Under the pieces are notes generated by a model. The model did not search any database. It saw only the letters and a list, made by a program, of their open reading frames with translations, and had not been told where the DNA came from. Made by a program: the position numbers and the translations under genes. From Patescibacteria group bacterium UBA5272 (GTDB lineage: Bacteria > Patescibacteriota > Minisyncoccia > Phycocordibacterales > UBA5272), in NCBI GenBank assembly GCA_002408565.1, contig DHTA01000005.1, forward strand, positions 108,049 to 172,048: DNA of 64,000 nucleotides. The letters are read 5' to 3'. How positions within the stretch are numbered: the stretch's first letter is position 1; each line of letters opens with the position of its first letter. Positions 13,609 through 45,307 of this stretch are shown here, piece after piece.

Positions 13609-13654
13609 GAGTTGCAAAAATACTTAAAAAAGTGTATAAAATATAGACAAAAAC

Positions 13655-14008: not shown

Positions 14009-14012
14009 AAAT

Positions 14013-14378
14013 ATGACAACTCTAAAAGAAACAAAAGAATATACAATTGATGCGACAGGAAAATCTTTAGGAAGATTATCTTCTCAGGTAGCAGCTCTTT
14101 TAAATGCTAAAAATTCTACTAGTTTTGCAAAAAATGTAGTGGCTCCAGTAAAGGTTAAAGTTATTAATGCTTCAAAAGTAAAAGTGACAGGTAAAAAAAT
14201 GAATCAAAGTGTTCACAAGACTTATTCTGGTTATCCAGGAGGACAAAGAGTGAAAACTTTAGCTACAGTTGTAGAGAAAAAAGGATATAAAGAAATTGTG
14301 AGACATGCTGTGGAAGGAATGCTTCCTAAAAATAAATTACAAGACAAGAGAATGAAAAATCTTTTAATAGAAGAATAA
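14013..14378 (+). CDS. rplM: 50S ribosomal protein L13
   Basis: KTYSGYPGGQRV and the L13 family pattern. ATG at 14013, immediately after the rplQ stop. The track's 13995 start is TTG inside rplQ. Confidence 0.9.
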   Translation: MTTLKETKEYTIDATGKSLGRLSSQVAALLNAKNSTSFAKNVVAPVKVKVINASKVKVTGKKMNQSVHKTYSGYPGGQRVKTLATVVEKKGYKEIVRHAVEGMLPKNKLQDKRMKNLLIEE

Positions 14379-14396
14379 GTTTAATATTATAAAATT

Positions 14397-14795
14397 ATGA
14401 GTAAAGAAAAATACATTGAAGGCATAGGAAGAAGAAAAACTGCGACAGCTAGAGTTCGTATAACTCCATCAGCTAAAGCTTCTTTTATCGTAAACGATAA
14501 AGATGTTCACGATTATTTTCCAACTTCAGAACTTCTCACTGTAGTAAATTCGGCTTTTGCTAAAGCTGATATTCCAAATAAATATTCTATTACCGTCAAA
14601 GTTTCAGGTTCTGGTATTCATTCTCAAGCCGAAGCTGTTAGACATGGTATCACTAGATGTTTGGTAGAAGAAGATAAAGAGCTTAGAACTACTCTCAAAA
14701 AACTTGGTTTCCTCAAAAGAGATCCTAGAAAGAAAGAAAGAAAGAAATTCGGTCTTAAAAAAGCTCGTAAAGGTCCAACTTGGTCAAAAAGATAG
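14397..14795 (+). CDS. rpsI: 30S ribosomal protein S9
   Basis: GRRKTATARVRITP... with a C-terminal KKARKGPTWSKR tail characteristic of S9. Confidence 0.9.
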   Translation: MSKEKYIEGIGRRKTATARVRITPSAKASFIVNDKDVHDYFPTSELLTVVNSAFAKADIPNKYSITVKVSGSGIHSQAEAVRHGITRCLVEEDKELRTTLKKLGFLKRDPRKKERKKFGLKKARKGPTWSKR

Positions 14796-19546: not shown

Positions 19547-20854
19547 ATGAAAGAATTTGTGCCAAAGGCTAATATAGATAAAGACGGAGATAGAAAAAAT
19601 AAAGAGAGTTTAGAGGATCAAAAAATAGACTTAAAAGTTTTTATTCGAGAGATATCCAAAGAGATATCTGAGTGTGAACCAGATTCTTTAGAATTTTTTA
19701 AATTAAAAAACTCTTTTATAAAAGCCGCGCCTATATTTAGGGAAAGTATAAAAGAATATATAGAATTATCCAAAGAATATCTTTTTATCATGGATTCTGA
19801 AAAAGAAGATTATTTTAGATTGGCCGATAAATTAGACTTAATGGAAGAAGAAGATAGGGAGATATTTTTTCAGGTCTTTAGACGAGGACAGGTGTATGGG
19901 CAATTAATTGATAATATTTTAGAAAAAAAAGAATTTTATCTAAATCAAAATGAAATAGAAAGAGATAAAGAAAAGGAAGAAATAAAAGAAGCTAAAGAAG
20001 AGCTTTTAGAATTTATTTTAGAAAGATTTGGATTTTCTGAAATAGAAGTAAAAAAGCTTATCAAAAGTTGGCTCACTATAGAGGATGATGAAATTGCTCG
20101 TTGGTATGTTGCTAGAAATTTACAAAATATAAATTTTCTAGAAAATCGTGAAGTTGGCTCAGCAAAATATTTATTTGATAATTTTGGTATTAGAGGTTTC
20201 GGGAGATATGAAATTCATGAACTCAATAAACAATATAGAGAAAGAGAAAATATGGGACCATACGGAATATATTATCAGGCAGTTATGGATTGGAATGGTT
20301 CTTTTATAAACTCAGATAATTCCGAAGACTTAGGTAGAAAAATAGAAAAACAAGGTTTTCTTATGAGAATAATAGAAGCAGATGGAAAAATCGATTCAGC
20401 TAAGAGATTACTCTCTTTAAGAGACAAATATGAACAGAAAATAAAATTTATGTATGTGCACGCTCATGGCAATACAGATGTTATAGGTCTCGGAGATGAC
20501 AAGATGTCCAGCAATAGATTGTTTGAACAGAAAGACTTAAAAGGCAAAGGAGTTCAGAGAGTCAAAGATTTATTTGAAGATGATGCGGAAGTTATCTTAT
20601 CTAGTTGTCTAACCGGTGTTAAAGGTGGTCTCGCAGAAGAAATTGCAAATACTTATGGGGTGAAAGTTATAGCTGCCGATAAACCAACAGTATGTAGACC
20701 TATTTCTGTAGATATTGAAAAGACAAAAGATGGGAATAATTTAGAATTTGATATTATCTTTAATACTGTAGACCTAGAAGTTGCAGAGGAGAGAGAAGAT
20801 AAAAAAAGATCTGATTTATTAGGCACTGTTATTTATAACCCAAAAGGTAGATAA
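19547..20854 (+). CDS. Acidic hypothetical protein with a C-terminal caspase-fold-like (His...Cys) domain
   Basis: FMYVHAHGNTDVIGLGDD ... EVILSSCLTGVKGG resembles the His-Gly and hydrophobic-strand-Ser-Cys dyad of CHAT/C80/caspase-like peptidases. The N-terminal roughly 250 aa are Glu/Lys-rich and helical. Confidence 0.45.
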   Translation: MKEFVPKANIDKDGDRKNKESLEDQKIDLKVFIREISKEISECEPDSLEFFKLKNSFIKAAPIFRESIKEYIELSKEYLFIMDSEKEDYFRLADKLDLMEEEDREIFFQVFRRGQVYGQLIDNILEKKEFYLNQNEIERDKEKEEIKEAKEELLEFILERFGFSEIEVKKLIKSWLTIEDDEIARWYVARNLQNINFLENREVGSAKYLFDNFGIRGFGRYEIHELNKQYRERENMGPYGIYYQAVMDWNGSFINSDNSEDLGRKIEKQGFLMRIIEADGKIDSAKRLLSLRDKYEQKIKFMYVHAHGNTDVIGLGDDKMSSNRLFEQKDLKGKGVQRVKDLFEDDAEVILSSCLTGVKGGLAEEIANTYGVKVIAADKPTVCRPISVDIEKTKDGNNLEFDIIFNTVDLEVAEEREDKKRSDLLGTVIYNPKGR

Positions 20855-32100: not shown

Positions 32101-33345
32101 ATGCCTAACTTTTTTCAAAAGAATTTTAAAAATTCCAACCTTAAATATATATTTTTAGTAGTTATTTCTATCTTTTTCTTTGGATTTGGATACTTATTTG
32201 GAGATTTGACCAACAAAAATGTCTTCAGTAAAGCTGCAGCTTCAGACTCTCCAATTATGATTCCTTCAGTTTTGAGCGAAGTCAAATATTATTTAACCAA
32301 TTATTTTGTTTCCTCTAAAGCTACTTCCACTTTACCGACCGACGAAGATTTGGCTTATGGCATGCTTAAGGGTTATGTGAATGCTTATGGAGACCCTTAT
32401 ACTCAATTTTTTGATCCAGAAGAATCTAAACAATTCGAAGAGGATGTCAAAGGTAGCTTTGGTGGTATAGGTGCAGTGATTGGCTATAAAGATCAAATAC
32501 CGGCTGTTATTTCGGTAATGAAAGATAATCCCGCTGAAAAAGCTGGAGTTCGAGATGGGGATTTGATTATTTCTGTAGATGGTACTTTTGTGCAAGGTAT
32601 GTCTGTCGATGAGATTGTGCGCTTGGTGCGTGGAGAGGTAGGCACGACTGTGACTTTGGGAGTACTTCATAAAGATGAAACTAAAACTAGCGAAATTGCT
32701 ATTACCAGAGGAGAAATTCATACTCCAATTTTAGACACAGAAATTATTAATGATGTCTTTGTGATTCATTTTTATTCTTTTACCGAAACTTCTTCTGTTA
32801 AATTTAGTCAAGCCATGATAGAATTTTTGAATTCTGGTAAGAATAAATTAATTATTGACTTACGAGGTAATGGTGGAGGATATTTGGAAAGTGCTATAGA
32901 TATCGCTTCTTTCTTTTTACCGTCAGACAAATTGATTGTGATAGAAAAGAGCGGTAAAGGTTTACCAGAAAAAGCTACTTATTCTAAGGGTTTTAATTAT
33001 TTTGCTAATAAAAATCTAAAAGTTGCTGTCTTAATTAATGAAGGCTCAGCTTCCGCTTCAGAAATTGTGGCTGGAGCTTTGAAAGATCACAAGGTGGCCA
33101 CAATTATTGGTGAAAAATCTTTTGGTAAAGGTAGTGTGCAACAATTAATTAAGCTTTCTGATGGTTCAGATTTAAAGTTTACTGTGGCTAAATGGTACAC
33201 TCCAAACGGAGTAAATATTTCTGAAAGCGGTATTGTTCCAGATATACTGGCTACCAGTTCTTCTAAAGTTTTACTTGATGAAGCTGGAGATCCAATTGAT
33301 GAGCAATTAAATAAAGCTGTAAAAATTATTAGAAATTTAAAATAG
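32101..33345 (+). CDS. Carboxyl-terminal processing protease (S41A, Ctp/Prc-like), membrane-anchored
   Basis: N-terminal TM, a PDZ domain (GGIGAVIGYKD...AEKAGVRDGDLIISVDG) and the S41 catalytic region (RGNGGGYL, GSASASEIVAGALKD). Confidence 0.85.
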   Translation: MPNFFQKNFKNSNLKYIFLVVISIFFFGFGYLFGDLTNKNVFSKAAASDSPIMIPSVLSEVKYYLTNYFVSSKATSTLPTDEDLAYGMLKGYVNAYGDPYTQFFDPEESKQFEEDVKGSFGGIGAVIGYKDQIPAVISVMKDNPAEKAGVRDGDLIISVDGTFVQGMSVDEIVRLVRGEVGTTVTLGVLHKDETKTSEIAITRGEIHTPILDTEIINDVFVIHFYSFTETSSVKFSQAMIEFLNSGKNKLIIDLRGNGGGYLESAIDIASFFLPSDKLIVIEKSGKGLPEKATYSKGFNYFANKNLKVAVLINEGSASASEIVAGALKDHKVATIIGEKSFGKGSVQQLIKLSDGSDLKFTVAKWYTPNGVNISESGIVPDILATSSSKVLLDEAGDPIDEQLNKAVKIIRNLK

Positions 33346-33370
33346 TTTAAATAGTTTTGAGATTTGTCTT

Positions 33371-33835
33371 ATGAAAGTTATTTTTATACAAAATGTAGCC
33401 AAACAAGGAAGAGTAGGTGAAATCAAAGAAGTGGCGGATGGTTTTGCGGTCAATGTTTTAATTCCTAAAAAGCAGGCTGTGATAGCTACTCCAGGAGCTA
33501 TTAAAAAACTAGAAGCTGAAAAGAAAAATAAAAAAATTAAACAAGAGCTTGATAAAAATCTTTTCCATCAAGCTTTGAATGATTTGCAAAAGATTTTAGA
33601 TGAAAAAACAAAGGGTATTTTAGAAATACTTGGGCACAAAAATGATGGCAAAGGAAATCTTTTTTCTCAAGTGAAAGAAGTAGATATTGCTGAAGCTATT
33701 TTCTCTTTAATAGGCATCTCTTTAAATCCTAGTCAAATAATTTTACCTAAAGAACCGATTAAGAAAATAGGGGAATACGAAATAGAAATTAAAGAAAAAG
33801 ATTTAAAAAAGAAAATTAAAATCGCTATAAAATAA
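33371..33835 (+). CDS. rplI: 50S ribosomal protein L9
   Basis: MKVIFIQNVAKQGRVGEIKEVADGFAVNVLIPKKQA is the L9 N-domain. Confidence 0.85.
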   Translation: MKVIFIQNVAKQGRVGEIKEVADGFAVNVLIPKKQAVIATPGAIKKLEAEKKNKKIKQELDKNLFHQALNDLQKILDEKTKGILEILGHKNDGKGNLFSQVKEVDIAEAIFSLIGISLNPSQIILPKEPIKKIGEYEIEIKEKDLKKKIKIAIK

Positions 33836-33853
33836 AAATAAATAAATCAAAAC

Positions 33854-33884
33854 AAATCCCGCTTTCGCGGGATTTATATTTTAT
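33854..33884. terminator. Bidirectional terminator shared by convergent rplI and rpmA
   Basis: AAAUCCCGC-UUUC-GCGGGAUUU flanked by A/T runs. Confidence 0.6.
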
Positions 33885-34180: not shown

Positions 34181-34531
34181 ATGGGTGAAAGTATATCAAA
34201 AACTTGGAAAAAAATCAATGTTGAGTTAAAAGGAAAGCCATTTTTATCCATTATTCTAACTCTTATTTTATGTATTAGTTATTTAAGTTATAAGATATTA
34301 ACCCATCCTAAGCTTTTTTCCGCTAAAGCTTTTGATTATCAAGCTTCCAATATCTCAGCTGAAACTCTAAAAAAAGCTAATTCTATTCGCTATATCTATG
34401 CTAGTCGCAGAGGCAGTAAATATTATTTTTACAATTGTAAATCTAGTATTAAAGAGACTAATAAAATCTATTTTGATTCAGAAGCCGCCGCCCAAAAAGC
34501 TGGCTACACTTTAGCCAAAACTTGTCAGTAG
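34181..34531 (+). CDS. Membrane-anchored small protein with an Ada-like metal-binding C-terminal motif
   Basis: TM helix, then KYYFYNCKSSIKETNKIYFDSEAAAQKAGYTLAKTCQ. This resembles the Ada_Zn_binding pattern YH..C....I...N..F.S..A..AGY.PCK.C. Confidence 0.45.
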   Translation: MGESISKTWKKINVELKGKPFLSIILTLILCISYLSYKILTHPKLFSAKAFDYQASNISAETLKKANSIRYIYASRRGSKYYFYNCKSSIKETNKIYFDSEAAAQKAGYTLAKTCQ

Positions 34532-34572: not shown

Positions 34573-34665
34573 ATGGCAAAAGGTGATTTTAGAGAAAGAA
34601 AAGAAAAAAAGAAACCAAAAAAATGTGGTTGTATGGGAAAGTGTAAGTGTAAAAAAGAATTTTAA
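34573..34665 (+). CDS. Putative 30-aa basic Cys-rich peptide (MAKGDFRERKEKKKPKKCGCMGKCKCKKEF)
   Basis: Hand-translated short ORF, not in the ORF track. It has its own extended -10 upstream (TGTGATATAAT at about 34541) and a terminator 27 nt downstream. Confidence 0.3.
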   Translation: MAKGDFRERKEKKKPKKCGCMGKCKCKKEF

Positions 34666-34691
34666 TCTATATCTTACTAGTTTAAAATAAA

Positions 34692-34719
34692 AAACATCTC
34701 GGGAACGAGGTGTTTTTTA
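34692..34719 (+). terminator. Rho-independent terminator after the small peptide ORF
   Basis: ACAUCUCG-GGAA-CGAGGUGU followed by TTTTTT. Confidence 0.5.
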
Positions 34720-34811
34720 TCTTTTAAAATTCAAAATGGCTCTTCAAAAAGTCAAAAAATATGGTATATTAAAACAATGGGGAGGGGAGACTAATGTAAA
34801 TATAAATTTGT

Positions 34812-35294
34812 ATGTCAGGAGAGGAAAAAAAAGAAAGAACAGAAATACCTGTATTAAAAGAATATCTAAAGTTTAATAGTATAAGTTTCGATCAGAAACT
34901 GTTACAAACAAAAGTCAAAGAACCTGCTGATTTAATTTATGACAATCAAGGCTATCAAATAACCACAGCTGACGGAAAACATTTCGGAAAGCTAAGGAGC
35001 AACACTGATAAATATGATATAGAAGATGTTAAAAATAGAACAGTTTATAGGTGTATAAATACAAATAAGGTTCTCGAAGAGAAGTTGAAAGATATCTTGG
35101 AAAAAAAAAGAAAAAGATCTGATAAAAATATTATTTTACTCATTAAAGACTACTTAGCAGATCCTTTCACTTCTGAAGAAGACAGGTTGAGACATTACGA
35201 AAAATTTAAATCATCCTATAAAAATTTGATAGATGTTTGGAAAGATGTCTATTTAATTGATCTGAATAAAAATGTAATAAAATTATCAGATTAG
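34812..35294 (+). CDS. Hypothetical protein (160 aa) heading the R-M module
   Basis: Intact ORF directly upstream of the methyltransferase, preceded by TGGTATATT (about 34757). No family recognised. Confidence 0.4.
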   Translation: MSGEEKKERTEIPVLKEYLKFNSISFDQKLLQTKVKEPADLIYDNQGYQITTADGKHFGKLRSNTDKYDIEDVKNRTVYRCINTNKVLEEKLKDILEKKRKRSDKNIILLIKDYLADPFTSEEDRLRHYEKFKSSYKNLIDVWKDVYLIDLNKNVIKLSD

Positions 35295-35347
35295 AATTGG
35301 TAGGCTAAATACTCTATAAAAACACCCTTTGTGCTTTAATTCTACAA

Positions 35348-36166
35348 ATGTCTATGACTCAAATTTTAAAAAATATAAAATCTAAACCTTATTTTTCTTC
35401 TAATGATTTTGTTCTGTATTTAGGAGATAGTATTGAATATTTAAATCAATTACCTGAAAATAGCGTAGACATGATTTTTGCTGATCCACCTTATAATTTA
35501 TCTAATGGGGGTTTTTCTTTGCATGCTGGGAAAAGGGTTCCTGTGAATAAGGGAGACTGGGATAAAAGTAAAGGCTTTCAAAATGATTATGAATTTCATT
35601 TAACTTGGTTACGGGCTTGTTATAGAGTTTTAAAACCAGACGGAACGATCTGGGTTTCTGGGACATATCACTCTATATATCAATGCGGGTCAGCTATGCA
35701 ACAAATTGGTTTTCATATTTTAAACGACATTTCTTGGTTTAAACCAAATGCATCTCCTAATTTATCTTGTAGATTTTTTACAGCTTCACACGAAACTTTA
35801 ATTTGGGCTAGAAAAGATAAAAAAGGAAAACATTATTTTGATTATAAGTTAATGAAAGAGGGAGATTGGAAGGAGGATTTTATCAAAAAACCCAATTTAC
35901 AAATGAGATCAGTTTGGTCAATTTATCCTCCTAAAACTTATGAAAAAGTCCATGGAAAACATCCTACCCAAAAACCTTTAGAGTTATTAAGAAGGTGTAT
36001 TCTGGCTAGTACAAAAGATGGGGATATTATAATAGATCCGTTTACTGGCAGTTCTACTACTGGGATTTCTTCTAAAATTATAGGAAAAAGGAAATTTGTT
36101 GGTTTTGATCTTGAAAAAAAGTTTTTGGATGTTAGTATTAAAAGGTATAAAGATTTATTGAAATAA
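35348..36166 (+). CDS. DNA methyltransferase, beta-class amino-MTase (N6-adenine or N4-cytosine; PF01555)
   Basis: Motif IV DPPY (MIFADPPYNL) precedes the C-terminal motif I region HPTQKPLELLRRCI...IIDPFTGSSTTG. The order IV then I indicates the beta class. DPPY favours N6-adenine. Confidence 0.8.
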   Translation: MSMTQILKNIKSKPYFSSNDFVLYLGDSIEYLNQLPENSVDMIFADPPYNLSNGGFSLHAGKRVPVNKGDWDKSKGFQNDYEFHLTWLRACYRVLKPDGTIWVSGTYHSIYQCGSAMQQIGFHILNDISWFKPNASPNLSCRFFTASHETLIWARKDKKGKHYFDYKLMKEGDWKEDFIKKPNLQMRSVWSIYPPKTYEKVHGKHPTQKPLELLRRCILASTKDGDIIIDPFTGSSTTGISSKIIGKRKFVGFDLEKKFLDVSIKRYKDLLK

Positions 36167-36171
36167 AAAAT

Positions 36172-36696
36172 ATGAAAAAAGGTGGAGTGGGTGGTGGAAA
36201 TACATTAACGGGTTTAAATTTTGAAAGAGAAAGAGATTTTTTATCTGTTTTAGATAAATCTAAAGGATATTCTATAAAAGATAATATAATATATTTCAAA
36301 AATAAAGAGGTTGCTAGAAACTATAGAAAAAATAGTTTATATAAATACTTAGAATCAAGAGGGGTAGATTATAAAAATCATATAAGTAAAAAATTATTAC
36401 CTGATGACGCTATTTATGTTATTAAAAATAACACTCTATTTATTATAGAAATGAAATTCCAAACTGTTGCTGGATCTGTAGATGAAAAATTACAAACTTG
36501 CGATTTCAAACTAAAACAATATAAAAAATTAATGTCTCCTTTGAATATAGATGTAGAATATATTTATATATTAAATGACTGGTTTAGAAAGTTTGAATAT
36601 AAAGACGTTTTAGATTATATAATTTCTGTAGGATGTGATTATTATTTTGAATATCTGCCACTTAAAAGACTGGGTTTGCCAGTTCCTAAACAATAA
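36172..36696 (+). CDS. Putative Type II restriction endonuclease (small PD-(D/E)xK fold)
   Basis: Immediately downstream of the MTase (5-nt gap). LLPDDAIYVIKNNTLFIIEMKFQ gives PD-x13-E-x-K. Confidence 0.5.
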   Translation: MKKGGVGGGNTLTGLNFERERDFLSVLDKSKGYSIKDNIIYFKNKEVARNYRKNSLYKYLESRGVDYKNHISKKLLPDDAIYVIKNNTLFIIEMKFQTVAGSVDEKLQTCDFKLKQYKKLMSPLNIDVEYIYILNDWFRKFEYKDVLDYIISVGCDYYFEYLPLKRLGLPVPKQ

Positions 36697-36744
36697 AACA
36701 AAAGAGGCGTATTCACACCTCTTTTGTTTTTTTAGTAATTAAAA

Positions 36745-36972
36745 TTATTCATTATGACATGATGTGCAGTAATAGCACCCATCCACGTTGTCAGCAATCT
36801 CCTTAGAGAAATTTTCTTTTACATAATTGATTGCGGTATGACAAGAAGTAAAAATTCCTAAAAATTTTTGATTTTCTGATTTTGGTAGAAGAGAACAACT
36901 AGAATTATGTACTTCGTAATTTTCTCCACTTTTAGAATCTTGTTTGTTTAAATTTAAAATATATTTATTCAT
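36745..36972 (-). CDS. Small Cys/His-rich protein (75 aa), putative zinc-binding, Ada-like N-terminal motif
   Basis: YEVHNSSCSLLPKSENQKFLGIFTSCH ... DGCYYCTSCHNE gives C-x3.. and C-x2-C-x2-CH clusters. Convergent with the R-M genes. Confidence 0.4.
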   Translation of the reverse strand: MNKYILNLNKQDSKSGENYEVHNSSCSLLPKSENQKFLGIFTSCHTAINYVKENFSKEIADNVDGCYYCTSCHNE

Positions 36973-37294
36973 ATTTTTTATTTACCATTAATAATAAGTT
37001 TTTGTTCTTTATCCAACTAGAAATTTTACAGCTGGGTATATTCTTTATCTCTATCGATTCTTGCTTTAATAAATCTTTTCTCTGAATCTCAAGAACTATA
37101 AATTAATATTTTTTACTGAATTTAAACCCTTAAGAACTATTAAATTATACAAAAATTCAAACCCTGTCACAAATATTATGGTGTTTTAATTGTGTGGATA
37201 GTGTGGAAAAGTAAAAACATTCATACATTCATATTTGCCAATAGATATAAACACTTGTTTATTCATGATCTTTATAAAATGCTATAATCTACCT

Positions 37295-40200
37295 ATGAAT
37301 AATCTAAATCAAACCTTCGAAACCCGCTATAAAAACCTAAATGAAAAGCAAAAAGAAGCTGTAGATACGATTGATGGCCCGGTTTTAGTAGTGGCTGGAC
37401 CAGGGAGTGGAAAGACAGAACTTCTCTCACTTCGTGCAGCAAATATTTTGAAAGAAACTCAGGCAACTCCTGGAAATATATTACTCCTCACATTTACTGA
37501 AAATGGAGCTAAAAATATGCGTGAGAGAATAGTCTCTCTAATTGGTGAAGCTGGATATAGGATAGCGATTTATACTTTCCACGCTTTCGCGAGCGACATT
37601 ATGAATAAATATGCCGAATTCTTTTTTGATGGAGCAAATTTTAAACCAGCCACTGAAGTGGAAAAGATAAATATTATTGAAAAAATCCTAGAGGCACTTC
37701 CAAGAGAAAATCCTCTGACCAGTCTTCATCCTGAAAAAGGCTACGCCTATCTCTATGATATTATTGCCCTCATCTCCGCTCTCAAAAAAGGAAATCTCAC
37801 CGGTGAAGAATTTAAAGAAAAAATTAAAAGAAATGAGAGTGAATATAAAGAGATAAATGAAAAAGTCAGCGAATACTTTTTAGAGATCGCAGGTAAAAGA
37901 AAATTTGAATTACTTCGCGATGTATATTTACAGATTTATAATGAATTAAATTTAATGGGGCAAAATGACAACAATGTGGCTAAGTTTTTGGCGGATATTT
38001 TATCTTTAGAGATAAAGCACGCTGAAGAAGTTGGTAAAGGGAACAATTTAACCAAATGGAAAGACCAATATTTTACCAAAAGCGAAGATGGCAGATTTAT
38101 TTTAAAAGATAGCCGCGAAGAAAAGATCAAGAAATGGATGGCTGTTGAAGATGTCTATGAGAAATACAACGCCAAAATGTATGAGGTTGGGCTATACGAC
38201 TTTGACGATATGATTTTTAAAGTTGGGCGCGAGCTTGAGAAAAATGAGGGACTAAGAAATGAGCTAGAAGAAAGATTCCAATATATTATGATTGACGAAT
38301 TCCAAGACACTTCGGACTCACAGTTTAATTTAGTTTTAAATCTAACTAAAAGTCTGGTAAATGAGGGAAGACCAAATGTTTTGGCTGTTGGAGACGATGA
38401 TCAGGCTATTTTCAAATTTCAAGGAGCTGAATTGGACAATATTACTAAATTTATAAAAAGTTACAAAGAAGTTAAACTTGTCACCTTAGATAAAAACTAT
38501 CGCTCTACTCAAAATATTTTGGATGAAGCGAGAAAGCTTATTACAAAAATTGGAGACAGACTAGAAACTAGGTACCCAGAAATAAATAAAGAAATCAAAG
38601 CGGAAAATGAAAAATTAATCAAGGCTCACAAAGGAGAAATCGTAGAGAAAAATTTTGACAATATTCATAGCGAGTTTAATTTTGTAGCTAAAGAGATAGA
38701 ATCTTTAATTAAAAAGGGAGTAAATCCAGAGGAAATAAGCGTCATCTCACGAACCCATAAAAATTTGAAAAACTTAGCTTCTATTTTTAATGAATACAAA
38801 ATCCCTTATAGCTATGAAAAAGAAGAGAACGTTTTTGATAAAGAACCGATTAGAGAAATAATTACTTTGGTAGAATTTGCGGAAAGTGGACTTGAAAATA
38901 TTAAAGAGGAATTGCTTCCAGAAATTTTGTCTTATAAATTCTGGGGTCTAGATAGAATAGAGGTTTGGAAAATAGGGGAGGTGGTCAGACAGGGAGAGAT
39001 TAGTTTAGGAGAGTTTGGAGAGAGAGTTTATATTAAACCATCTTGGCTTAAAGTAATGTTGGAAAGTCAGAATGAAAAAGTAAAAGGTGTTGCAAAATTT
39101 TTAATAGAACTAGTTAGCGATGCAAAATCTTTACCACTCCTTCACTTGATAGATAAAATAGTCGGTACTCGTGAATGGGAAGTGAATCGTGAATACGACG
39201 ATGGGGAAGAGGGAGAAAAAGAAATTAATTTTATTTCTCCATTTAAAGGATATTATTTTGGAAAGGAAAATTTTGATCACAATAAACCAGAATACCTAGA
39301 CTTCCTTTTTGCGCTTCGCACATTTATTGGTTCTCTTCGCGAATACAAAGGTGGTGATACCCTGTATGCTAGAGATTTGAAAGATTTTGTAGCTATTTAT
39401 GAAAATAATAAAAACTTAACCCTTTCTACCATTTCTCCTTTTGCGACTAGTGAAAAAGCGGTAGTACTTCAGACGGCCCACAAAAGTAAAGGACTTGAAT
39501 ATGAATATATTTTTATTTTAAATAGTGATGAAAATGAGTGGAATGGTAGGAAAGGTGTAAATAAAATTGGACTTCCAATCAATTTGCCACTCTTGCCGTC
39601 AGATGATGATATTTCGGACAGGGTGAGACTTTATTATGTAGCTATGACTAGAGCTAAACATACTCTTTATATCACTAATAATAAGGAAAAGTTTTCTATG
39701 CTTTTAACGGAAAAAGAAGAGAAAGAGAAAAACGAAATAGATGACGACTTGATTAAGACTTTATATCCGGTAGAGAAAAAGATATTTTTGGAAGATGAAA
39801 AAGCCCTTTTAAAAAGAGTTTTAGAGGATTATAAAATGCCGGTTACTCATATTATAAATTTCTTAAATATTGGAAAAATTGGTCCAGAAAAATTCTTGGA
39901 GCAAAATTTACTTCGTTTTCCACAAGCTATGAGTCCATCTAGTGTCTATGGAACAGCTATACACGAGGCTATTCAAAACTACTATCTTTATAAAAAGAAA
40001 TATGAAAAGAATCCAGATCTTGACAGAGTAATCTCTTTTTTTAAGAACGCTTTAAATAGAGGAGCTCTTTCAAAGATAGAATACGAAAAATATTATAATT
40101 CCGGAGTGAAAAATTTGGAAATATTTATTCAAAATTTAGAGAAGCAAAAAGAGTTAGGGCAGATTGAAGTGGAAGTAAACTTTGCTAACGAAGGAGTGCA

Positions 40201-40675
40201 GATAAAAGATGTGCCAGCAACTGGAAAGATAGATAAATTAGTCTTGAATGGAAATTCTGCTGTGGTCACTGATTTTAAGACGGGAAAAAGTTTTAGAGAT
40301 TGGAATGATGGAGATAGCAATTATGACAAAATAAAATTGCATTTCTTTGAATATCAGCTGGCTTTTTATGCCCTACTTCTACGAAATTCCAGAACCTATG
40401 AAAGGGTTAATTTTGAAAAAGGAATTATAGAGTTTGTAGAAGCTGATTCAAAAAATAAAGTAAATATTTTGGAAATAAAAGATGGTGAGGAATTTGAGGT
40501 TATCATAGATAGGGTAGAGTCTTTGGCTAATGCTATTTACAAAAAGATAGTCGATTTAGATTTTCCAGATACTGCGAGATATAAACTGAAAAAAGATAGA
40601 GCGGAAGAAAAAGATGAAGTCACCCTGAGAGATATTATTCAATTTGAAGATGATTTATTAAGTGGTAATATATAA
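37295..40675 (+). CDS. AddA-like ATP-dependent helicase/nuclease (UvrD/PcrA-type SF1 helicase fused to a C-terminal RecB-family PD-(D/E)xK nuclease)
   Basis: Walker A VVAGPGSGKTE, UvrD motifs (MIDEFQDTS, VGDDDQAIFKFQGA, YRST) and the C-terminal nuclease motif GKIDKLV...VVTDFKTGKS. TATAAT at 37283-37288. The track's 37235 start is in-frame upstream junk. Confidence 0.8.
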   Translation: MNNLNQTFETRYKNLNEKQKEAVDTIDGPVLVVAGPGSGKTELLSLRAANILKETQATPGNILLLTFTENGAKNMRERIVSLIGEAGYRIAIYTFHAFASDIMNKYAEFFFDGANFKPATEVEKINIIEKILEALPRENPLTSLHPEKGYAYLYDIIALISALKKGNLTGEEFKEKIKRNESEYKEINEKVSEYFLEIAGKRKFELLRDVYLQIYNELNLMGQNDNNVAKFLADILSLEIKHAEEVGKGNNLTKWKDQYFTKSEDGRFILKDSREEKIKKWMAVEDVYEKYNAKMYEVGLYDFDDMIFKVGRELEKNEGLRNELEERFQYIMIDEFQDTSDSQFNLVLNLTKSLVNEGRPNVLAVGDDDQAIFKFQGAELDNITKFIKSYKEVKLVTLDKNYRSTQNILDEARKLITKIGDRLETRYPEINKEIKAENEKLIKAHKGEIVEKNFDNIHSEFNFVAKEIESLIKKGVNPEEISVISRTHKNLKNLASIFNEYKIPYSYEKEENVFDKEPIREIITLVEFAESGLENIKEELLPEILSYKFWGLDRIEVWKIGEVVRQGEISLGEFGERVYIKPSWLKVMLESQNEKVKGVAKFLIELVSDAKSLPLLHLIDKIVGTREWEVNREYDDGEEGEKEINFISPFKGYYFGKENFDHNKPEYLDFLFALRTFIGSLREYKGGDTLYARDLKDFVAIYENNKNLTLSTISPFATSEKAVVLQTAHKSKGLEYEYIFILNSDENEWNGRKGVNKIGLPINLPLLPSDDDISDRVRLYYVAMTRAKHTLYITNNKEKFSMLLTEKEEKEKNEIDDDLIKTLYPVEKKIFLEDEKALLKRVLEDYKMPVTHIINFLNIGKIGPEKFLEQNLLRFPQAMSPSSVYGTAIHEAIQNYYLYKKKYEKNPDLDRVISFFKNALNRGALSKIEYEKYYNSGVKNLEIFIQNLEKQKELGQIEVEVNFANEGVQIKDVPATGKIDKLVLNGNSAVVTDFKTGKSFRDWNDGDSNYDKIKLHFFEYQLAFYALLLRNSRTYERVNFEKGIIEFVEADSKNKVNILEIKDGEEFEVIIDRVESLANAIYKKIVDLDFPDTARYKLKKDRAEEKDEVTLRDIIQFEDDLLSGNI

Positions 40676-40677
40676 TT

Positions 40678-41556
40678 ATGGCTGATAAATATAATGCAGT
40701 TTGGCTCTCCCATTCATCTTTTAACGACTTTTTAAGTTGCCCTAAAGCTTATTATCTTAAAAATGTCTATAAAGACCCTAAAAGTAGAAATAAAATCTCT
40801 CTAATTTCTCCACACACCTCTCTTGGCTCAGCCGTTCATTTAACTATTGAAACTCTTTTAGATTTTCCTTCAGAAAAGAGGACAGAAAAACTAAATACTT
40901 TAGAAAAAGACTATGAAAAAATTTGGCAAGCTAATTTTCAAGGGAAAAGAGGTGGATTTTTGAGCGAAGAGGAAGAAAAAGATTTTTTTGAAAGAGGTTT
41001 AGCAATGATTAAAAATATCAAAGAAAATCCAAATTTTTTATTAAATAAAATTATAAAAAGAGAAAGTTATTATAAGGGAGATATTTTACCAAACTTTTTT
41101 ATTGATGACGAAGAAGAAATTTTGCTTTGTGGAGTACCAGACTGGGTAGAATATTTAGACGATGACACTTTGCACGTGATAGATTTTAAAACTGGAAAAA
41201 ATGAAGAAAGAGAAGATAGTTCTCAATTACCAATTTATGTTTTACTTTTAGAAAATTTACAAAAAAGAAAAGTCTCTCGGGCTAGCTATTGGTATTTGTC
41301 CAAAGATAAGAAAGCACAAGAAAAAGAAATCAACAGAGAAGAGATTGAAGACCTTAAAAATAAAATTGTTAAAACCGGAAAAGATATTAAAGATTTAAAA
41401 AATGAAGCCTTAAAAAAAGACTGGCGAGAAGTCTTTTTTTGTGGAAGAGGGGAGGAGGGTTGTATACATTGTAAAGATTATGAGAAAATAGTTTCTGGTG
41501 AAGCAGAATATGTCGGTAAAGATATTTACAATAAAGATGGTTATATTTTAAATTAA
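40678..41556 (+). CDS. Stand-alone RecB-family/Cas4-like PD-(D/E)xK nuclease with a 4-Cys cluster (AddB nuclease-domain-like)
   Basis: N-terminal Cys (FLSCPKAYYL), nuclease motifs (GVPDWVEY, HVIDFKTGKN) and a C-terminal CGRGEEGCIHC cluster: the 1+3 Cys Fe-S arrangement seen in AddB/Cas4. A 2-nt gap after the helicase suggests translational coupling. Confidence 0.65.
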   Translation: MADKYNAVWLSHSSFNDFLSCPKAYYLKNVYKDPKSRNKISLISPHTSLGSAVHLTIETLLDFPSEKRTEKLNTLEKDYEKIWQANFQGKRGGFLSEEEEKDFFERGLAMIKNIKENPNFLLNKIIKRESYYKGDILPNFFIDDEEEILLCGVPDWVEYLDDDTLHVIDFKTGKNEEREDSSQLPIYVLLLENLQKRKVSRASYWYLSKDKKAQEKEINREEIEDLKNKIVKTGKDIKDLKNEALKKDWREVFFCGRGEEGCIHCKDYEKIVSGEAEYVGKDIYNKDGYILN

Positions 41557-41557
41557 C

Positions 41558-43291
41558 TTAGTTTTTAATTTGTAAACGAAGAAGCTTGAGAGAATCGTAA
41601 TCTATTTTTATTTTTAAATCTTTATTTAATTTATCAAACTTAGTCTTTAGTCCAGAGTCTTCTGCTAAAACTTTTTTAATAGCTTTTAATTGAATATTAG
41701 TATATTTTTTCTCAATTTCTTTCCAAATATATTTCAAATCTTTTTCTTCTATTTCTCTCCCTTCAAATAATTCTTCAATATGACTAATAATAGTATTGGT
41801 TTTTAAGCTTCTCTTTTTAGCAATTTCTTTTGGCAAAAGTTTTTCTTTGAGAAAGTCTAAAGTCACTAAAGTGGTTTTAGTTTTTACAGGTTTTTCAAAA
41901 GTTTCTTTTTCTAGTTCGTGAGGAACTAAATCCCCATCAGAAGCCAAGATAAAATCTTCTTGTAATCTTTTGAGTTTATTTTCCATTTCTTTACTAGAAA
42001 AATATTTTTCTAAAGCTTGACTAGCTTTCTCGGATCTAGCTCGAAAAACTTTATCTTGCTTTGTAACCCCAGGATTAATTTTTAAAGCTTTATCATGAAT
42101 ACCCAGAAGACAAATATTTTCAAATTTCCTTACTCTAGATAAGGCTACGTAACCCATGCCTGTACCAAAAGCTTTAGAAAGGTCAATTTCGGCAGCGTCT
42201 AAAGTCATACCTTGAGATTTGTGCACTGTAATAGCCCAAGCGTAGCGAAGAGGCAATTGTGAAATTTCAGCCAAGACTTTGCCGTCATCATTTACATATT
42301 GCCAATTTTCTCGAGAGACCGAAATCTTTTTTCCATCAAAAGTTTTAACTATAGGCATATTGGAGACATCAAAGTCTATAATTTCTCCCAAAGTTCCATT
42401 TTGATATTCGCGATTTTTATCATTTTTTACAAAAATAACTTTAGCTCCTTTTTTGAGATTAATACTTTCTGGAGCCAGACAGTTAGCTTTCAAAATTTCT
42501 ACAAAGTTTTTCTTCCCGTTGCAAATCACTTCATAAGAAAATTCTGGAGAGTCAATTTTTAAATCACAATATTTTTCTAAATTAATAGTATCTACATCAA
42601 TATTATGAGTGTAAAGTTTTAAAGTTTCAGTTTTTGTTTGAGAAGAAAGGTTTTTGTTTAATTTTTGAAGAATTTTATTTGTGTCTCTTTCAAAACGAAT
42701 ATCGTTTAAAATTTTTGTTAAAGTTTCACCTTCTTTTTGGCGATAATTTTCTTCTAAATAACAAATTATCGGATTTAATTCTTTCCAAGCTAGAGAGTTA
42801 TAAGCAAATTCCTGATCTTCGTCCGGATAATCTTCCATCTTTCCATATCTTTTAACCACTGGTGGAAGCTGAAAAAAATCTCCACAGAAAACTATTTGTA
42901 TTCCACCAAAAGGTAAATCATTTTTTCTAAAAGTTTTAAAAAGAGTATTAATCATATCAAGACGATTGGCGTGAAGCATGGAAATTTCGTCGATAATTAA
43001 AACTTTAACATTTGCATAACGTTTATAAAGTTTTTCATTTTGTTCAAGTTTATCTAAAGTATATTTATCTAATTTTTCATAGACACCAATTCCGCTCCAA
43101 GAATGAATAGTTTGTCCTCCAATATGAGTGGCTGCGATACCAGTAGAAGCTGTAATAGCTGGAGGAATAGAATGAGACTTTAAATATTCAATATATTTAT
43201 TTAAAACAAAAGTTTTACCAGTGCCAGCAGCTCCAGTCAAAAATACCGAATGTCCCATTTTCATTATATCCAAAGCTTCTTTTTGAGTCAT
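41558..43291 (-). CDS. Pif1/RecD-like SF1B DNA helicase with a C-terminal extension
   Basis: Walker A LTGAAGTGKTF, Walker B LIIDEISM, Q-motif and RecD/Pif1 family motifs (VHKSQGMTLD). About 130 extra C-terminal residues. Confidence 0.7.
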   Translation of the reverse strand: MTQKEALDIMKMGHSVFLTGAAGTGKTFVLNKYIEYLKSHSIPPAITASTGIAATHIGGQTIHSWSGIGVYEKLDKYTLDKLEQNEKLYKRYANVKVLIIDEISMLHANRLDMINTLFKTFRKNDLPFGGIQIVFCGDFFQLPPVVKRYGKMEDYPDEDQEFAYNSLAWKELNPIICYLEENYRQKEGETLTKILNDIRFERDTNKILQKLNKNLSSQTKTETLKLYTHNIDVDTINLEKYCDLKIDSPEFSYEVICNGKKNFVEILKANCLAPESINLKKGAKVIFVKNDKNREYQNGTLGEIIDFDVSNMPIVKTFDGKKISVSRENWQYVNDDGKVLAEISQLPLRYAWAITVHKSQGMTLDAAEIDLSKAFGTGMGYVALSRVRKFENICLLGIHDKALKINPGVTKQDKVFRARSEKASQALEKYFSSKEMENKLKRLQEDFILASDGDLVPHELEKETFEKPVKTKTTLVTLDFLKEKLLPKEIAKKRSLKTNTIISHIEELFEGREIEEKDLKYIWKEIEKKYTNIQLKAIKKVLAEDSGLKTKFDKLNKDLKIKIDYDSLKLLRLQIKN

Positions 43292-43356: not shown

Positions 43357-44730
43357 ATGATTTTTAATCTATTTAATTCTAAAAAAAATCTTAAAAAAGA
43401 AGAGGATTTCTCTTTTGGTTTAACCAAAAAGCTAGTAAAAAGCATTTCTAAAGACAAAAAAGAGCCAAAATGGATGCTTAAAAAGCGTTTAGAGGCTTTT
43501 GCCGTCTATAAAAGTACTCCTTTACCAAATTGGGGACCAAGTTTAAAAGATTTAAATTTAAATGAAATTGTCTATTATGTGCCAAGTAATTTGAAAGAGC
43601 AAAGTAGTTGGGAGAAAGTCCCTAAAGAAATTGCTGAAACTTTTGAAAAATTGGGTATTCCAAAAGCTGAGAAAGAATATTTAGGAGGGGTGGGAGCTCA
43701 ATACGATTCCGGAGTAATTTATCATTCTATAAAAGAGTCTCTTAAAAAACAGGGAGTGATTTTTGAAAACTTAGATACCGCTCTCAAGCTTTATCCTGAT
43801 TTAGTGAAAAAATATTTCATGAATGATTGTATAAAAATAAATGAGCATAAATTTGCTTCTTTGCATGCGGCTTGCTTTAGTGGTGGAACATTTATTTACG
43901 TACCTAAAGGAGTAGAAGTTCGTATGCCACTTCAATCTTATTTTCGAATGAATAAAGAAAAGGGTGGACAATTTGAGCACACTATTATTGTGGCAGATGA
44001 AAATAGTTATGTAGAATATATTGAAGGGTGTTCTGCGCCAAGATATTCTTTTTCAGCTCTTCACGCTGGTGGAGTAGAAATTTTTGTTGGTAAAGGAGCT
44101 AAAGTAAAATATTCTAGCATTGAGAATTGGAGTAAAAATGTTTACAATTTGAATACTAAAAAAGCTTTAGTTTTTGAAAGGGGAGAAATAGAATGGCTAA
44201 ATGGAAATACTGGATCTTCTACTACCATGCTTTATCCATCTTCTATTTTACTTGGAGAATATGCGAGGAGTGAAAGTCTGGGTATAGCTATGGCCGGTAA
44301 AGGACAATTTCAAGATGTAGGGAGTAAAGTCGTACATATTGCTCCAAATACTTATTCTGTCATTAAATCAAAATCTATAGCTAAAAACGGAGGAGTTTCA
44401 AATTATAGAGGCTTTGTGGAAATTGGCAAAAAAGCCAAAAATTCTAAAGCTGTAGTAAATTGTGACACTTTAATATTAGATGAAAATTCTAAAGCTCTCG
44501 CTGTGCCAGTCAACAAAGTTTCTAATCAAGATGTAGAAATTTCTCATGAAGCTAAAGTGGGGCAGCTTTCTCTTAAAGAAATTTTCTATACCAATCTCCA
44601 CGGTTTTGATGAATATGGAGCACAAAGATTAATTATCGGTGGATTTGCTAATGAAGTTATTAAAAAACTTCCTTTAGAATACGCGATAGAGTTAAACAAA
44701 TTAATTGACTTAGAAATAGAAGGAATGTAA
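43357..44730 (+). CDS. sufB: Fe-S cluster assembly protein SufB
   Basis: SufB/SufD beta-helix core, IIVADENSYVEYIEGCSAP (conserved Cys) and a C-terminal KEIFYTNLHGFDEYGAQRLI. Confidence 0.8.
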   Translation: MIFNLFNSKKNLKKEEDFSFGLTKKLVKSISKDKKEPKWMLKKRLEAFAVYKSTPLPNWGPSLKDLNLNEIVYYVPSNLKEQSSWEKVPKEIAETFEKLGIPKAEKEYLGGVGAQYDSGVIYHSIKESLKKQGVIFENLDTALKLYPDLVKKYFMNDCIKINEHKFASLHAACFSGGTFIYVPKGVEVRMPLQSYFRMNKEKGGQFEHTIIVADENSYVEYIEGCSAPRYSFSALHAGGVEIFVGKGAKVKYSSIENWSKNVYNLNTKKALVFERGEIEWLNGNTGSSTTMLYPSSILLGEYARSESLGIAMAGKGQFQDVGSKVVHIAPNTYSVIKSKSIAKNGGVSNYRGFVEIGKKAKNSKAVVNCDTLILDENSKALAVPVNKVSNQDVEISHEAKVGQLSLKEIFYTNLHGFDEYGAQRLIIGGFANEVIKKLPLEYAIELNKLIDLEIEGM

Positions 44731-44734
44731 ATAT

Positions 44735-45307
44735 ATGGAAAAAGTAAAATACGGATTAAAAATTTATACTGATTTTAAAGAGAGTGAAATAAAAGAAAGG
44801 ACTCGAATTATTAATATAGACGAGGCTAAACATCTTGAGATCAAAGAAGAGAATTTTGAAAATGATTTTCTTTCACACATTATTATAAATCTAAATGTAG
44901 CAGAAGCTAGTGTGAAATTTATTGGCAGATATAGAGCGGAAAAATCTTTATGTGATATTTCTTGCGTGATTAATCATAAAGCCGATTACACCAAATCCGA
45001 AATCGATATTAAAGGCATTGCAGAAGCAGAGGGAAAAATAATTTCTCGTTCCAATATTTTTGTAGATGAAGATGTGAAAGGTGCAGAAGGGGAAGAAAAA
45101 GTAAAATTTATTTTTGTAGTTAAAGAAGGTGGAGAAGCAGGGGAGATAGACGCTATTCCAAATCTAGATATCAATAGTCACGATGTAAAAGTCTCTCACG
45201 CTCTTTCTATCTCAAAAATAAAAGAAACTGATATTTGGTATGCCAATCTTCATTCTTTTGACGAAAAAGAGTCCGAAGTCTTTTTTAAGGAAAACTTTTT
45301 AAATTAA
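44735..45307 (+). CDS. sufD: SufD-like protein (short, beta-helix core only)
   Basis: Parallels the SufB C-terminal core (VKVSHALSISKIKETDIWYANLHSFDE). 190 aa. Adjacent to sufB. Confidence 0.55.
   Translation: MEKVKYGLKIYTDFKESEIKERTRIINIDEAKHLEIKEENFENDFLSHIIINLNVAEASVKFIGRYRAEKSLCDISCVINHKADYTKSEIDIKGIAEAEGKIISRSNIFVDEDVKGAEGEEKVKFIFVVKEGGEAGEIDAIPNLDINSHDVKVSHALSISKIKETDIWYANLHSFDEKESEVFFKENFLN

Follow-up and report, generated by a model that had tools for sequence, protein, structure and literature searches.

Is a run of DNA-targeting genes lodged among housekeeping genes one acquired island, or do genes of different history simply lie side by side? The question is raised by a 64-kb stretch of DNA from Patescibacteria group bacterium UBA5272 (contig DHTA01000005.1, positions 108,049 to 172,048), here called the window; coordinates below are window positions unless a locus (Lnnn) is named. 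The window has a G+C content of about 31%, and the genes identified in it are housekeeping genes throughout (AlaRS, DnaK, GltX, RmuC, RecR, DnaB, CysS, FtsX and others). The initial annotation had described eight open reading frames (ORFs) at 34573-43291, among them a methyltransferase, two nucleases and two helicases, as a single defence or DNA-processing island inserted between rpmA and the suf genes. All eight ORFs are found where it had placed them, and a domain search bore out rplI and rpmA upstream of the block and sufB downstream. The region as a whole, however, is very probably a composite, in which core repair genes adjoin a variable slot (34731-37274) that has no relation to them.

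Conserved gene order around a variable slot

Synteny was assessed by comparing contigs that encode orthologues, of decreasing identity, of the large UvrD/PcrA-type helicase of the block. In L001 (helicase 86% identical) the order of the window is kept from RecR to holB, including the genes for a 30-amino acid (aa) peptide, a 160-aa protein, the helicase, a 292-aa nuclease, the Pif1 helicase and sufBD, and the genes for the methyltransferase, the endonuclease and a 75-aa protein are missing. At 74% identity (L002) the order is rplI-rpmA-115 aa-(FMN reductase, lipoprotein)-helicase-nuclease-Pif1-serS, with no suf genes; at 68% (L083) it is helicase-nuclease-Pif1-sufBD-serS; and at 60% (L084) a type I system, Fic, SduA_C and an ATPase lie directly upstream of the helicase, with the nuclease and Pif1 downstream. 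The order DnaB-CysS-S41-rplI-rpmA-…-helicase-…-nuclease is still kept in L085 and L086, whose helicases are 43% and 41% identical. A metagenome scan added 80 further loci; it used the family-specific nuclease domain of the helicase, the matches listed by a scan with the full-length helicase alignment having been mostly unrelated UvrD genes. The arrangement rplI-rpmA-…-helicase is retained in ten metagenome loci with a helicase of about 40% identity, and the iron-sulfur (Fe-S) nuclease follows downstream in nine of these, the tenth contig stopping about 1.3 kb past the helicase. The order CysS-S41-rplI-rpmA-…-helicase-…-Fe-S nuclease thereby persists at helicase identities of 38-43%. None of the loci examined has sufB immediately after rpmA.

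Every close relative has the helicase, nuclease and Pif1 genes, and these belong, together with the 30-aa peptide gene, to the conserved backbone. Ratios of non-synonymous to synonymous substitution rates (dN/dS) of 0.068 for the helicase, 0.080 for the 292-aa nuclease and 0.085 for Pif1 speak of strong purifying selection, and the DNA from 37 to 43.5 kb is native-like in composition (tetranucleotide z <0.4). Conserved position, purifying selection and native composition together identify the helicase, nuclease and Pif1 genes as core genes and not as an island. With the 30-aa peptide gene, they are vertically inherited in a Paceibacteria-type lineage, as members of the run DnaB-CysS-S41-rplI-rpmA-…-helicase-…-serS. 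Furthermore, L002 lacks the suf genes yet keeps the helicase, nuclease and Pif1, which counts against one island between rpmA and sufB.

Compositional deviation had been proposed as a mark of the island. It is weak and confined to about 34.5-37 kb (z 2.0-2.3, GC 0.27-0.28), the sole part of the block that deviates, and is no greater there than at several housekeeping stretches of the window, e.g. dnaK (z 2.7). The search with defence profiles (PADLOC) likewise singled out the methyltransferase as a defence component and none of the other seven genes; matches to the GajB, Cas4 and RecD-like models are generic domain matches without partner genes. The 8.7-kb island therefore fails as a whole, only 34731-37274 being polymorphic, and what survives of the claim is an accessory insertion of 2.5 kb carrying one predicted type II restriction-modification cassette. 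Conserved order and unremarkable composition, which the initial annotation had itself named as evidence against an island, are what is found over 37.3-43.3 kb. In addition, no ORF carries an integrase or transposase domain (Pfam, NCBIfam), and there are no tRNA genes nearby and no flanking repeats. No Rfam family was matched between 33800 and 43500, and no CRISPR-like array occurs in the 64-kb window.

The limits of the slot were drawn by blastn against L096 and L097, contigs of the same species (96-99.6% nucleotide identity in the flanks). L096 is 99.6% identical up to 34730 and 98.2% from 37275; for L097 the values are 98.8% and 96.1%. Homology ends on the left at 34718 for L099 and L095, and the right breakpoint, 37275, is common to L001, L092, L096, L097 and L099. 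The left edge lies just past the hairpin that follows the peptide gene and the right edge just ahead of the helicase -10 element: 'aaaatgctataat' stands directly after the homology breakpoint, is identical in the window, L001, L096, L097 and L099, and probably acts as the promoter of the helicase gene. The slot would sit between the terminator of the peptide gene and this promoter.

The content of the slot changes from contig to contig. The window, L098 and L092 hold the 160-aa gene, the predicted type II restriction-modification pair and the 75-aa gene, and L001 holds the 160-aa gene only. L096 carries a 1050-aa type IIG endonuclease-methyltransferase (PADLOC 3.7e-271; Type_ISP_C, N6_Mtase, Eco57I) and a 186-aa ORF; L097 an EcoRI-like methylase (2.8e-147), a T5orf172 protein and a GmrSD_N-HNH nuclease; and L099 a methyltransferase of the window type (93% aa identity), a 202-aa MutH-family endonuclease and a DUF1508 protein. 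The type I system, Fic and SduA_C (Shedu-like) occupy the slot of L084, and the FMN reductase and lipoprotein that of L002. L095 has a homologue of the 75-aa gene with unrelated small ORFs and no restriction-modification genes. In relatives with a helicase of about 40% identity the slot contains HD-domain and TerC genes. The slot spans 0-4 kb in close relatives; in L084 it spans at least about 10 kb, the defence block there reaching the edge of the retrieved locus. L092 and L001 are 99.74% identical over 7.7 kb and only L092 has the 2-kb methyltransferase-endonuclease-75-aa block, a presence/absence polymorphism between near-identical strains. In this survey of about ten contigs, which is not a pan-genome, the slot is a genuine hotspot of defence cargo among close relatives. 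Defence hotspots flanked by core genes are well known, e.g. in E. coli and Acinetobacter (PMC10121019, PMC11723918). The present slot resembles those hotspots in its fixed intergenic position, its core-gene flanks, the different systems found per strain and the occurrence of one strain with none. It differs from them in being very small, in usually holding a single system, in having no mobile-element genes and in belonging to an uncultivated, small-genome Patescibacteria lineage seen in about ten contigs.

How the cargo is exchanged is suggested by the flanks. The backbone is about 95-96% identical to L001 at the nucleotide level, with a synonymous divergence (dS) of 0.1-0.3. Two stretches, 32254-33860 (3' part of the S41 protease gene plus rplI) and 37294-41478, are only 68-88% identical to L001; dS reaches 1.30 for the helicase, 0.55 for the nuclease and about 0.8 for S41 and rplI, with dN/dS of 0.07-0.29 throughout. 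Positive selection for a divergent helicase allele was considered and rejected, since a dS of 1.3 with a dN/dS of 0.068 indicates an imported old allele instead. This mosaic divergence points to recombinational import of older alleles around variable sites. No direct or inverted repeats, att sites or tRNA genes were found at the slot borders, and site-specific integration was rejected on these grounds. Given the absence of integrase, repeats and tRNA genes and the patches of older divergence in the flanks, homologous recombination in the conserved genes on either side is therefore the most likely route of cargo exchange, older alleles coming along. A second, minor variable site lies in the gap between rplI and rpmA (33836-33880), where a 385-bp insertion in L001 (8196-8486) and L099 adds a gene of about 96 aa that the window does not have.

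Features of the block and the evidence for each (window coordinates)
Feature	Position	Strand	Basis
30-aa Lys/Cys-rich peptide gene	34574-34666	+	ORF read from sequence
Terminator-like hairpin and T-run after peptide gene	34684-34723	+	Inverted repeat I17: 18-nt arms, 89% complementary, 4-nt loop
Variable slot, 2544 bp	34731-37274	none	blastn breakpoints against same-species contigs
160-aa hypothetical protein	34812-35294	+	No match in Pfam, NCBIfam, PADLOC, PHROGs
Methyltransferase with DPPY motif	35348-36166	+	PF01555, 5.1e-55
174-aa putative endonuclease	36172-36696	+	PD…E-x-K motif
Bidirectional terminator-like hairpin between endonuclease gene and convergent 75-aa gene	36692-36733	none	Inverted repeat I12: 19-nt arms, 89% complementary; terminator scan 36730-36695
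75-aa Cys/His-rich protein, phage-associated family	36745-36972	-	phrog_4298, 6.7e-18
Putative helicase-gene promoter element 'aaaatgctataat', extended -10 type	37276-37288	+	Conserved; promoter role inferred
UvrD/PcrA helicase with C-terminal PDDEXK_1, 1126 aa	37295-40675	+	Pfam
PDDEXK_1 / Cas4-like nuclease, 292 aa	40678-41556	+	Pfam; four invariant Cys
Pif1 helicase with HTH_40, 577 aa	41558-43291	-	Pfam

Some neighbouring genes may be mentioned here. The product of a gene at 34181-34531 (+), 116 aa long, is predicted to have a membrane helix at its N-terminus, contains Cys at its C-terminus and weakly matches, below threshold, the Ada_Zn_binding and 'sunset' domains; the gene is kept beside rpmA even where the helicase of the relatives is only about 40% identical. 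The suf locus (43357-45307) comprises no more than sufB and a short sufD-like gene of 190 aa, both of which L002 (74%) lacks at this position. Two large ORFs elsewhere in the window, 9008-10516 (+, 502 aa) and 19547-20854 (+, 435 aa), have no Pfam match at E<=1e-5.

The core helicases and the iron-sulfur nuclease

The large helicase starts at ATG 37295 and not at TTG 37235, because its orthologues start there and 'aaaatgctataat' falls inside the TTG extension. It matches UvrD-helicase (5e-59), UvrD_C (1.1e-25) and PDDEXK_1 (1.8e-11) in Pfam. No variation is seen in its Walker A motif, in DEFQDT or in the nuclease residues D980, D993-x-K995 and Q1021…Y1025. Among solved structures PcrA comes closest (1.1e-50), PcrA/UvrD structures scoring 1e-50 to 1e-42 and AdnB and RecB about 1e-12. 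The NCBIfam equivalog models for PcrA, UvrD, Rep, RecB and AddA all stay far below their cut-offs, those for AddA at 92-101 bits against 708-861. Of 7258 homologues, the best 120 listed have identities of 40-97% and for the most part span the full length; where a source is named, it is Patescibacteria, Paceibacterota or Nomurabacteria (metagenome bins).

Gene neighbourhoods outside the close relatives define the family further. In another lineage the helicase is flanked by dnaG-rpoD upstream and dsbA-uppP-hisS downstream: dnaG-rpoD precede it in 12 of 37 loci, and in 16 of the 27 loci without a nearby nuclease a DsbA-like gene follows, mostly together with uppP, a DnaQ-like exonuclease and hisS (identities read by eye from the translated sequences). 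Within 4 kb upstream of the helicase at 37 distant loci, 127 ORFs gave no match at E<=1e-10 to the methyltransferase and endonuclease families of PADLOC. Upstream PADLOC matches to MzaA, RT_UG29 and RTasDnaG-like were set aside as most likely rpoD and dnaG, their member counts being equal to those of the sigma-70 and DnaG Pfam families. The helicase family as a whole is therefore a housekeeping one with lineage-specific synteny.

The 292-aa nuclease gene starts 2 nucleotides (nt) after the helicase stop codon. Its product matches PDDEXK_1 (1.1e-23) and, marginally, Cas_Cas4 (25.8 bits, cut-off 22.7), and reaches 43 of the 65 bits required by TIGR00372 cas4. Residues C21, C255, C262, C265, D155, D169-x-K171 and Q183…Y187 are invariant in seven orthologues, and a layout of one plus three Cys is that of the iron-sulfur clusters of AddB, AdnA and Cas4 (PMC12094033). 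The closest solved structure is ACE1 (9iab/9iac), an Argonaute-associated nuclease of the Cas4 family (E 1.7e-4); a single-sequence model had a mean predicted local distance difference test score (pLDDT) of 39.7 and was unusable. The Fe-S nuclease lies downstream of the helicase in all six contexts looked up and in 11 of 38 metagenome loci, these being the loci with at least 4 kb of downstream sequence, scored within 10 kb; in the remaining loci its gene may lie elsewhere in the genome. In L085, about 1.1 kb between helicase and Fe-S nuclease (13350-14500) contains only short, non-protein-like ORFs and is apparently richer in G+C; it matches no Rfam family and could be an unrecognised RNA gene or a decayed insertion.

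No cas genes lie beside the 292-aa nuclease, which fits the 'solo Cas4' genes described by Hudaiberdiev et al. (2017, PMC5704561). Solo Cas4 was reported to be over-represented in the Candidate Phyla Radiation (CPR, i.e. Patescibacteria), and solo-cas4 genes to be mainly vertical in general (Hudaiberdiev et al. 2017, PMC5704561). In the same work, fusions of UvrD to a Cas4-like nuclease formed a large branch of pfam12705, some of them beside type III restriction-modification genes, for which an ancillary defence role was proposed, and unfused operons of UvrD and Cas4-like genes were found in non-defence contexts (PMC5704561). The window has much in common with these: a stand-alone, apparently vertical Cas4-family nuclease without CRISPR-cas in a CPR genome, and a UvrD-PDDEXK_1 fusion. 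The likeness of the window helicase to the fusion clade is one of architecture. Unlike in the published fusions (PMC5704561), here both genes stand side by side in a housekeeping context, the fusion clade being associated mainly with type III or Dcm/Vsr genes. A search of the literature on AddAB or UvrD-nuclease proteins in Patescibacteria found nothing specific, PMC5704561 being the relevant prior work.

The Pif1 gene is convergent with the nuclease gene. Its product matches PIF1 (2.7e-40; 138.7 bits, cut-off 25.9), Pif1_2B_dom (24.4 bits, cut-off 23.9) and HTH_40 (4.1e-9), and the closest solved structures are eukaryotic Pif1 (1.6e-67) and Bacteroides Pif1 (8.7e-53). With bacterial and eukaryotic Pif1 helicases (e.g. 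Bacteroides Pif1, PDB 5fhd) it shares the PIF1 and Pif1_2B domains, and unlike them it has an extra C-terminal HTH_40 domain. The gene has the same position in L001, L002, L083, L084, L092, L096 and L099, i.e. its convergent placement persists among relatives down to a helicase identity of 60%.

Judging by domains, the most likely role of the helicase and nuclease genes is in replication, repair and the processing of DNA ends. The helicase would unwind duplex DNA, and its own RecB-type domain would cut one strand; the small iron-sulfur nuclease, in which D…D-x-K and QxxxY are intact and the four Cys are placed as in the AddB and Cas4 clusters, may act on the opposite strand in the manner of AddAB. 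How far does this comparison carry? AddB is about 1100 aa long and joins a degenerate helicase-like body to an iron-sulfur nuclease domain at its C-terminus, and we know of no AddAB- or RecBCD-type enzyme characterised in this lineage. The window helicase is like AddA, RecB and AdnB in combining a superfamily 1A UvrD-like motor with a C-terminal RecB-family nuclease, and the second nuclease, encoded 2 nt downstream, has the one-plus-three Cys of AddB and AdnA. Unlike AddB, AdnA and RecC, however, this second protein has 292 aa, is made up of the nuclease domain only and lacks the helicase-like body of about 800 residues; the addB model gives it 19 bits (cut-off 486). The motor is nearer to PcrA/UvrD (1e-50) than to AdnB/RecB (1e-12), and in contrast to AddAB the genes stand next to each other in some members of the family only. 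A bolder reading would make the pair a minimal AddAB-type end-resection enzyme, with an 'AddB' reduced to its Fe-S nuclease domain, and would tie it to the restriction hotspot upstream, whose fragments it would process or whose cassette exchange it would drive by stimulating recombination; we consider this rather unlikely.

Still less favoured is a reading that makes the conserved helicase-nuclease, alone or joined by the Cas4-like nuclease and Pif1, a fixed element of defence, or an ancillary one, that serves the adjacent restriction system, e.g. by degrading fragments. Five different restriction-type cargos do lie directly upstream of the helicase in relatives with a helicase of 60-99% identity, UvrD-Cas4-like fusions near type III restriction-modification and Dcm/Vsr genes have been proposed to be ancillary (PMC5704561), and GajB is the strongest PADLOC match of the helicase (3.7e-72). 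The latter similarity, however, is one that UvrD helicases share in general: the models for PcrA, UvrD and Rep give comparable or better scores, and no GajA-like OLD-family nuclease gene accompanies the GajB-like helicase as would be expected of Gabija. Relatives with a helicase of about 40% identity hold HD-domain and TerC genes in the slot, other lineages have dnaG-rpoD and dsbA-uppP-hisS around the helicase, and the 127 upstream ORFs include no restriction-modification family. The helicase gene is also predicted to be transcribed from its own conserved promoter outside the exchanged segment. We thus regard service to the restriction system as unlikely and retain a core role in DNA-end processing, replication and repair as the preferred assignment.

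The probable restriction-modification cassette and its companions

The cargo of the window itself begins with a gene whose product matches PF01555 over nearly the whole profile (positions 1-219 of 221), contains FADPPYNL and DPFTGSSTTG, and is recognised by PADLOC as MTase_II (3e-91); on these motifs it is a type II beta-class DNA methyltransferase (N6-adenine or N4-cytosine). The endonuclease gene begins 5 nt past the methyltransferase stop codon in the same orientation. Its 174-aa product has only a sub-threshold PDDEXK_11 match in Pfam, no meaningful match in a sequence search of solved structures, and no Pfam, NCBIfam or PADLOC model for its family, which is 'hypothetical' in every naming source. 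Its PD…E-x-K motif is invariant at the catalytic positions, and the top fold matches of the predicted structure are restriction endonucleases. It has 6906 homologues; the best 120 listed share 71-99% identity with it (71-83% for most) and carry no Pfam domain. Those few with a name belong to Paceibacterota, Falkowbacteria, Parcubacteria and a Bacteroidales bin, and the 29 that were aligned are 71-83% identical to the window copy, with the phylum known for few.

A methyltransferase of the N6_N4 type, 270-285 aa long, lies directly upstream of a 173-aa endonuclease gene in four unrelated contexts (L087, L088/L089, L090/L091 and L092). Neighbours elsewhere are RuvX and a peptidase, an Mrr_N fragment, or glycosyltransferases and GmrSD/HEPN genes. 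The methyltransferases of those contexts are 65-68% identical to that of the window, and the pair diverges together. From motifs, pairing and modelled fold we infer that the methyltransferase and the 174-aa protein form a type II restriction-modification pair with an unannotated endonuclease family; and since the pair recurs in unrelated contexts and is present or absent in near-identical strains, it appears to be a mobile cassette. The methyltransferase would mark a short target, and the PD-(D/E)xK enzyme would cut unmarked DNA. In known type II systems with a CcrM/HinfI-like N6_N4_Mtase, too, adjacent co-oriented genes, the DPPY motif, PF01555 and a PD…E-x-K partner occur, here together with a fitting predicted fold, and like other type II systems the pair moves among unrelated genomes and varies in presence between strains. 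Unlike them, it involves an endonuclease family that lacks any model and is unusually conserved (71-83% among the sampled homologues).

Side observations extend the range of the cassette. In L099 (5420-6845), the methyltransferase that is 93% identical to that of the window is paired with a 202-aa type II endonuclease of the MutH family and not with a member of the 174-aa family; this swap of the endonuclease under one methyltransferase implies that both enzymes would recognise the same site. In the unrelated, Patescibacteria-like context of L090/L091 (4160-10190), the cassette is followed by GmrSD_N and HEPN_RiboL-PSP genes and, about 3 kb past these, by a Pif1 helicase 44% identical to that of the window. 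A degraded copy occurs in Neisseria gonorrhoeae (L176, NZ_CP119140.1, 7981-14467), just downstream of a gene judged DpnI-like by its sequence, in a 2.17-Mb record filed as 'plasmid'; its methyltransferase is frameshifted and its endonuclease homologue truncated at 151 aa (49% identity).

Could the methyltransferase instead be an orphan, regulatory enzyme of the CcrM type, with the 174-aa nuclease-fold protein in another role, e.g. repair or a toxin? The closest solved structure is indeed that of CcrM, a cell-cycle regulator (2.9e-59); the 174-aa family has a name in no source, and none of the PADLOC endonuclease models matches it; its identity of 71-83% over 29 aligned homologues is unusually high for a restriction enzyme; and GANTC is not avoided in the window. 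Yet the methyltransferase scores 238 bits with the NCBIfam CcrM model, far below the equivalog cut-off of 830, and with 272 aa it is shorter than this model of 350 positions, which it matches only at positions 7-249. Pairing is strict in four unrelated contexts, the block is present or absent at 99.7% flank identity, the same methyltransferase has a MutH-family type II partner in L099, and the top fold matches are restriction endonucleases. An orphan methyltransferase is on balance very unlikely, and a restriction-modification pair remains the assignment that we favour.

CcrM as closest solved relative suggests a target of the GANTC type. The window has about as many GANTC sites as expected (186 observed, 191 expected) and fewer GATC sites (115 and 172), and the L099 partner is of the MutH family; for these reasons specificity was assigned to neither site. 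Site avoidance was likewise dropped as a guide to the recognition site, GANTC not being depleted and the depletion of GATC and ACGT not being attributable to the cassette. The most under-represented palindromes in the 64 kb are ACGT (31 observed, 67 expected), GATC, GGCC and TCGA, which is consistent with long-term exposure to restriction and is assignable to no resident system.

The remaining small genes at the slot have separate histories. The 30-aa peptide gene, just outside the slot, is 81-93% identical at the aa level in L001, L092, L095, L096, L097 and L099, differs from that of L001 by three synonymous and two non-synonymous changes, and has no family match. The 160-aa protein is slot cargo of a very small family: its gene is present in L001, L092 and L098 and absent from the slots of L096, L097 and L099, and among 1.84 billion only 22 cluster representatives were found at E<=1e-3. 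The 75-aa protein had been called a convergent, Zn-binding-like protein. Its gene is convergent and the product rich in Cys and His (H22, C26, C44, C66, C69, C72 and H73 are invariant), and the identity that was found is that of a phage family: it matches no Pfam profile and, over its full length, phrog_4298, which has no known function, with distant homologues in phages of the Firmicutes Erysipelothrix, Staphylococcus and Streptococcus and only three close homologues in a set of 5.8 billion proteins. The 75-aa gene is missing from the cassettes of L087-L091 and present without restriction-modification genes in the slot of L095; it moves independently of the restriction-modification pair.

A composite locus and its meaning

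That the whole block, 34573-43291, is a single horizontally acquired defence and DNA-processing island between rpmA and sufB has next to no probability left: DNA-targeting functions cluster in it and match GajB-like, Cas4-like and RecD-like PADLOC models, but the helicase and Fe-S nuclease (and Pif1 in closer relatives) hold their position relative to rplI/rpmA in every spanning contig examined, no relative has rpmA beside sufB, L002 keeps all three genes without suf, composition is native and purifying selection strong, and GajA or cas partner genes and a CRISPR array are absent.

Several points weigh against the composite that we prefer. The Fe-S nuclease is found near the helicase in only 11 of 38 loci, so that their physical partnership is not established. 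Defence genes adjoin the helicase in several close relatives and in L084, which leaves room for a functional link, and UvrD-Cas4 fusions have been reported beside type III restriction-modification genes (PMC5704561). The mechanism of exchange is read solely from mosaic divergence and the absence of mobility genes, and in composition the slot stands out only weakly (z about 2).

Nothing at this locus is a new kind of system, since solo Cas4, UvrD-Cas4 fusions and defence hotspots between core genes are already known (PMC5704561, PMC10121019, PMC11723918). What is new is an unannotated and widespread family of putative endonucleases, a compact hotspot of restriction systems in a Patescibacteria species cluster, and the occurrence of a PcrA-like helicase-nuclease beside an iron-sulfur nuclease of the size of a domain. 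With about 6900 homologues that are everywhere 'hypothetical', the 174-aa family most likely consists of type II restriction endonucleases, as its motif, gene pairing and predicted fold suggest.

For annotation, the lesson is that the succession of UvrD-type helicase, Cas4-like nuclease and Pif1/RecD-like helicase can pass for a defence island and that these are core genes in the CPR; in view of this core role, matches to GajB and Cas4 profiles should not be called defence systems without partner genes. The helicase-nuclease and the small iron-sulfur nuclease are a candidate for a minimal end-resection machine. For the biology of small genomes, the locus shows that restriction systems are swapped between near-identical strains, apparently without mobile-element machinery.

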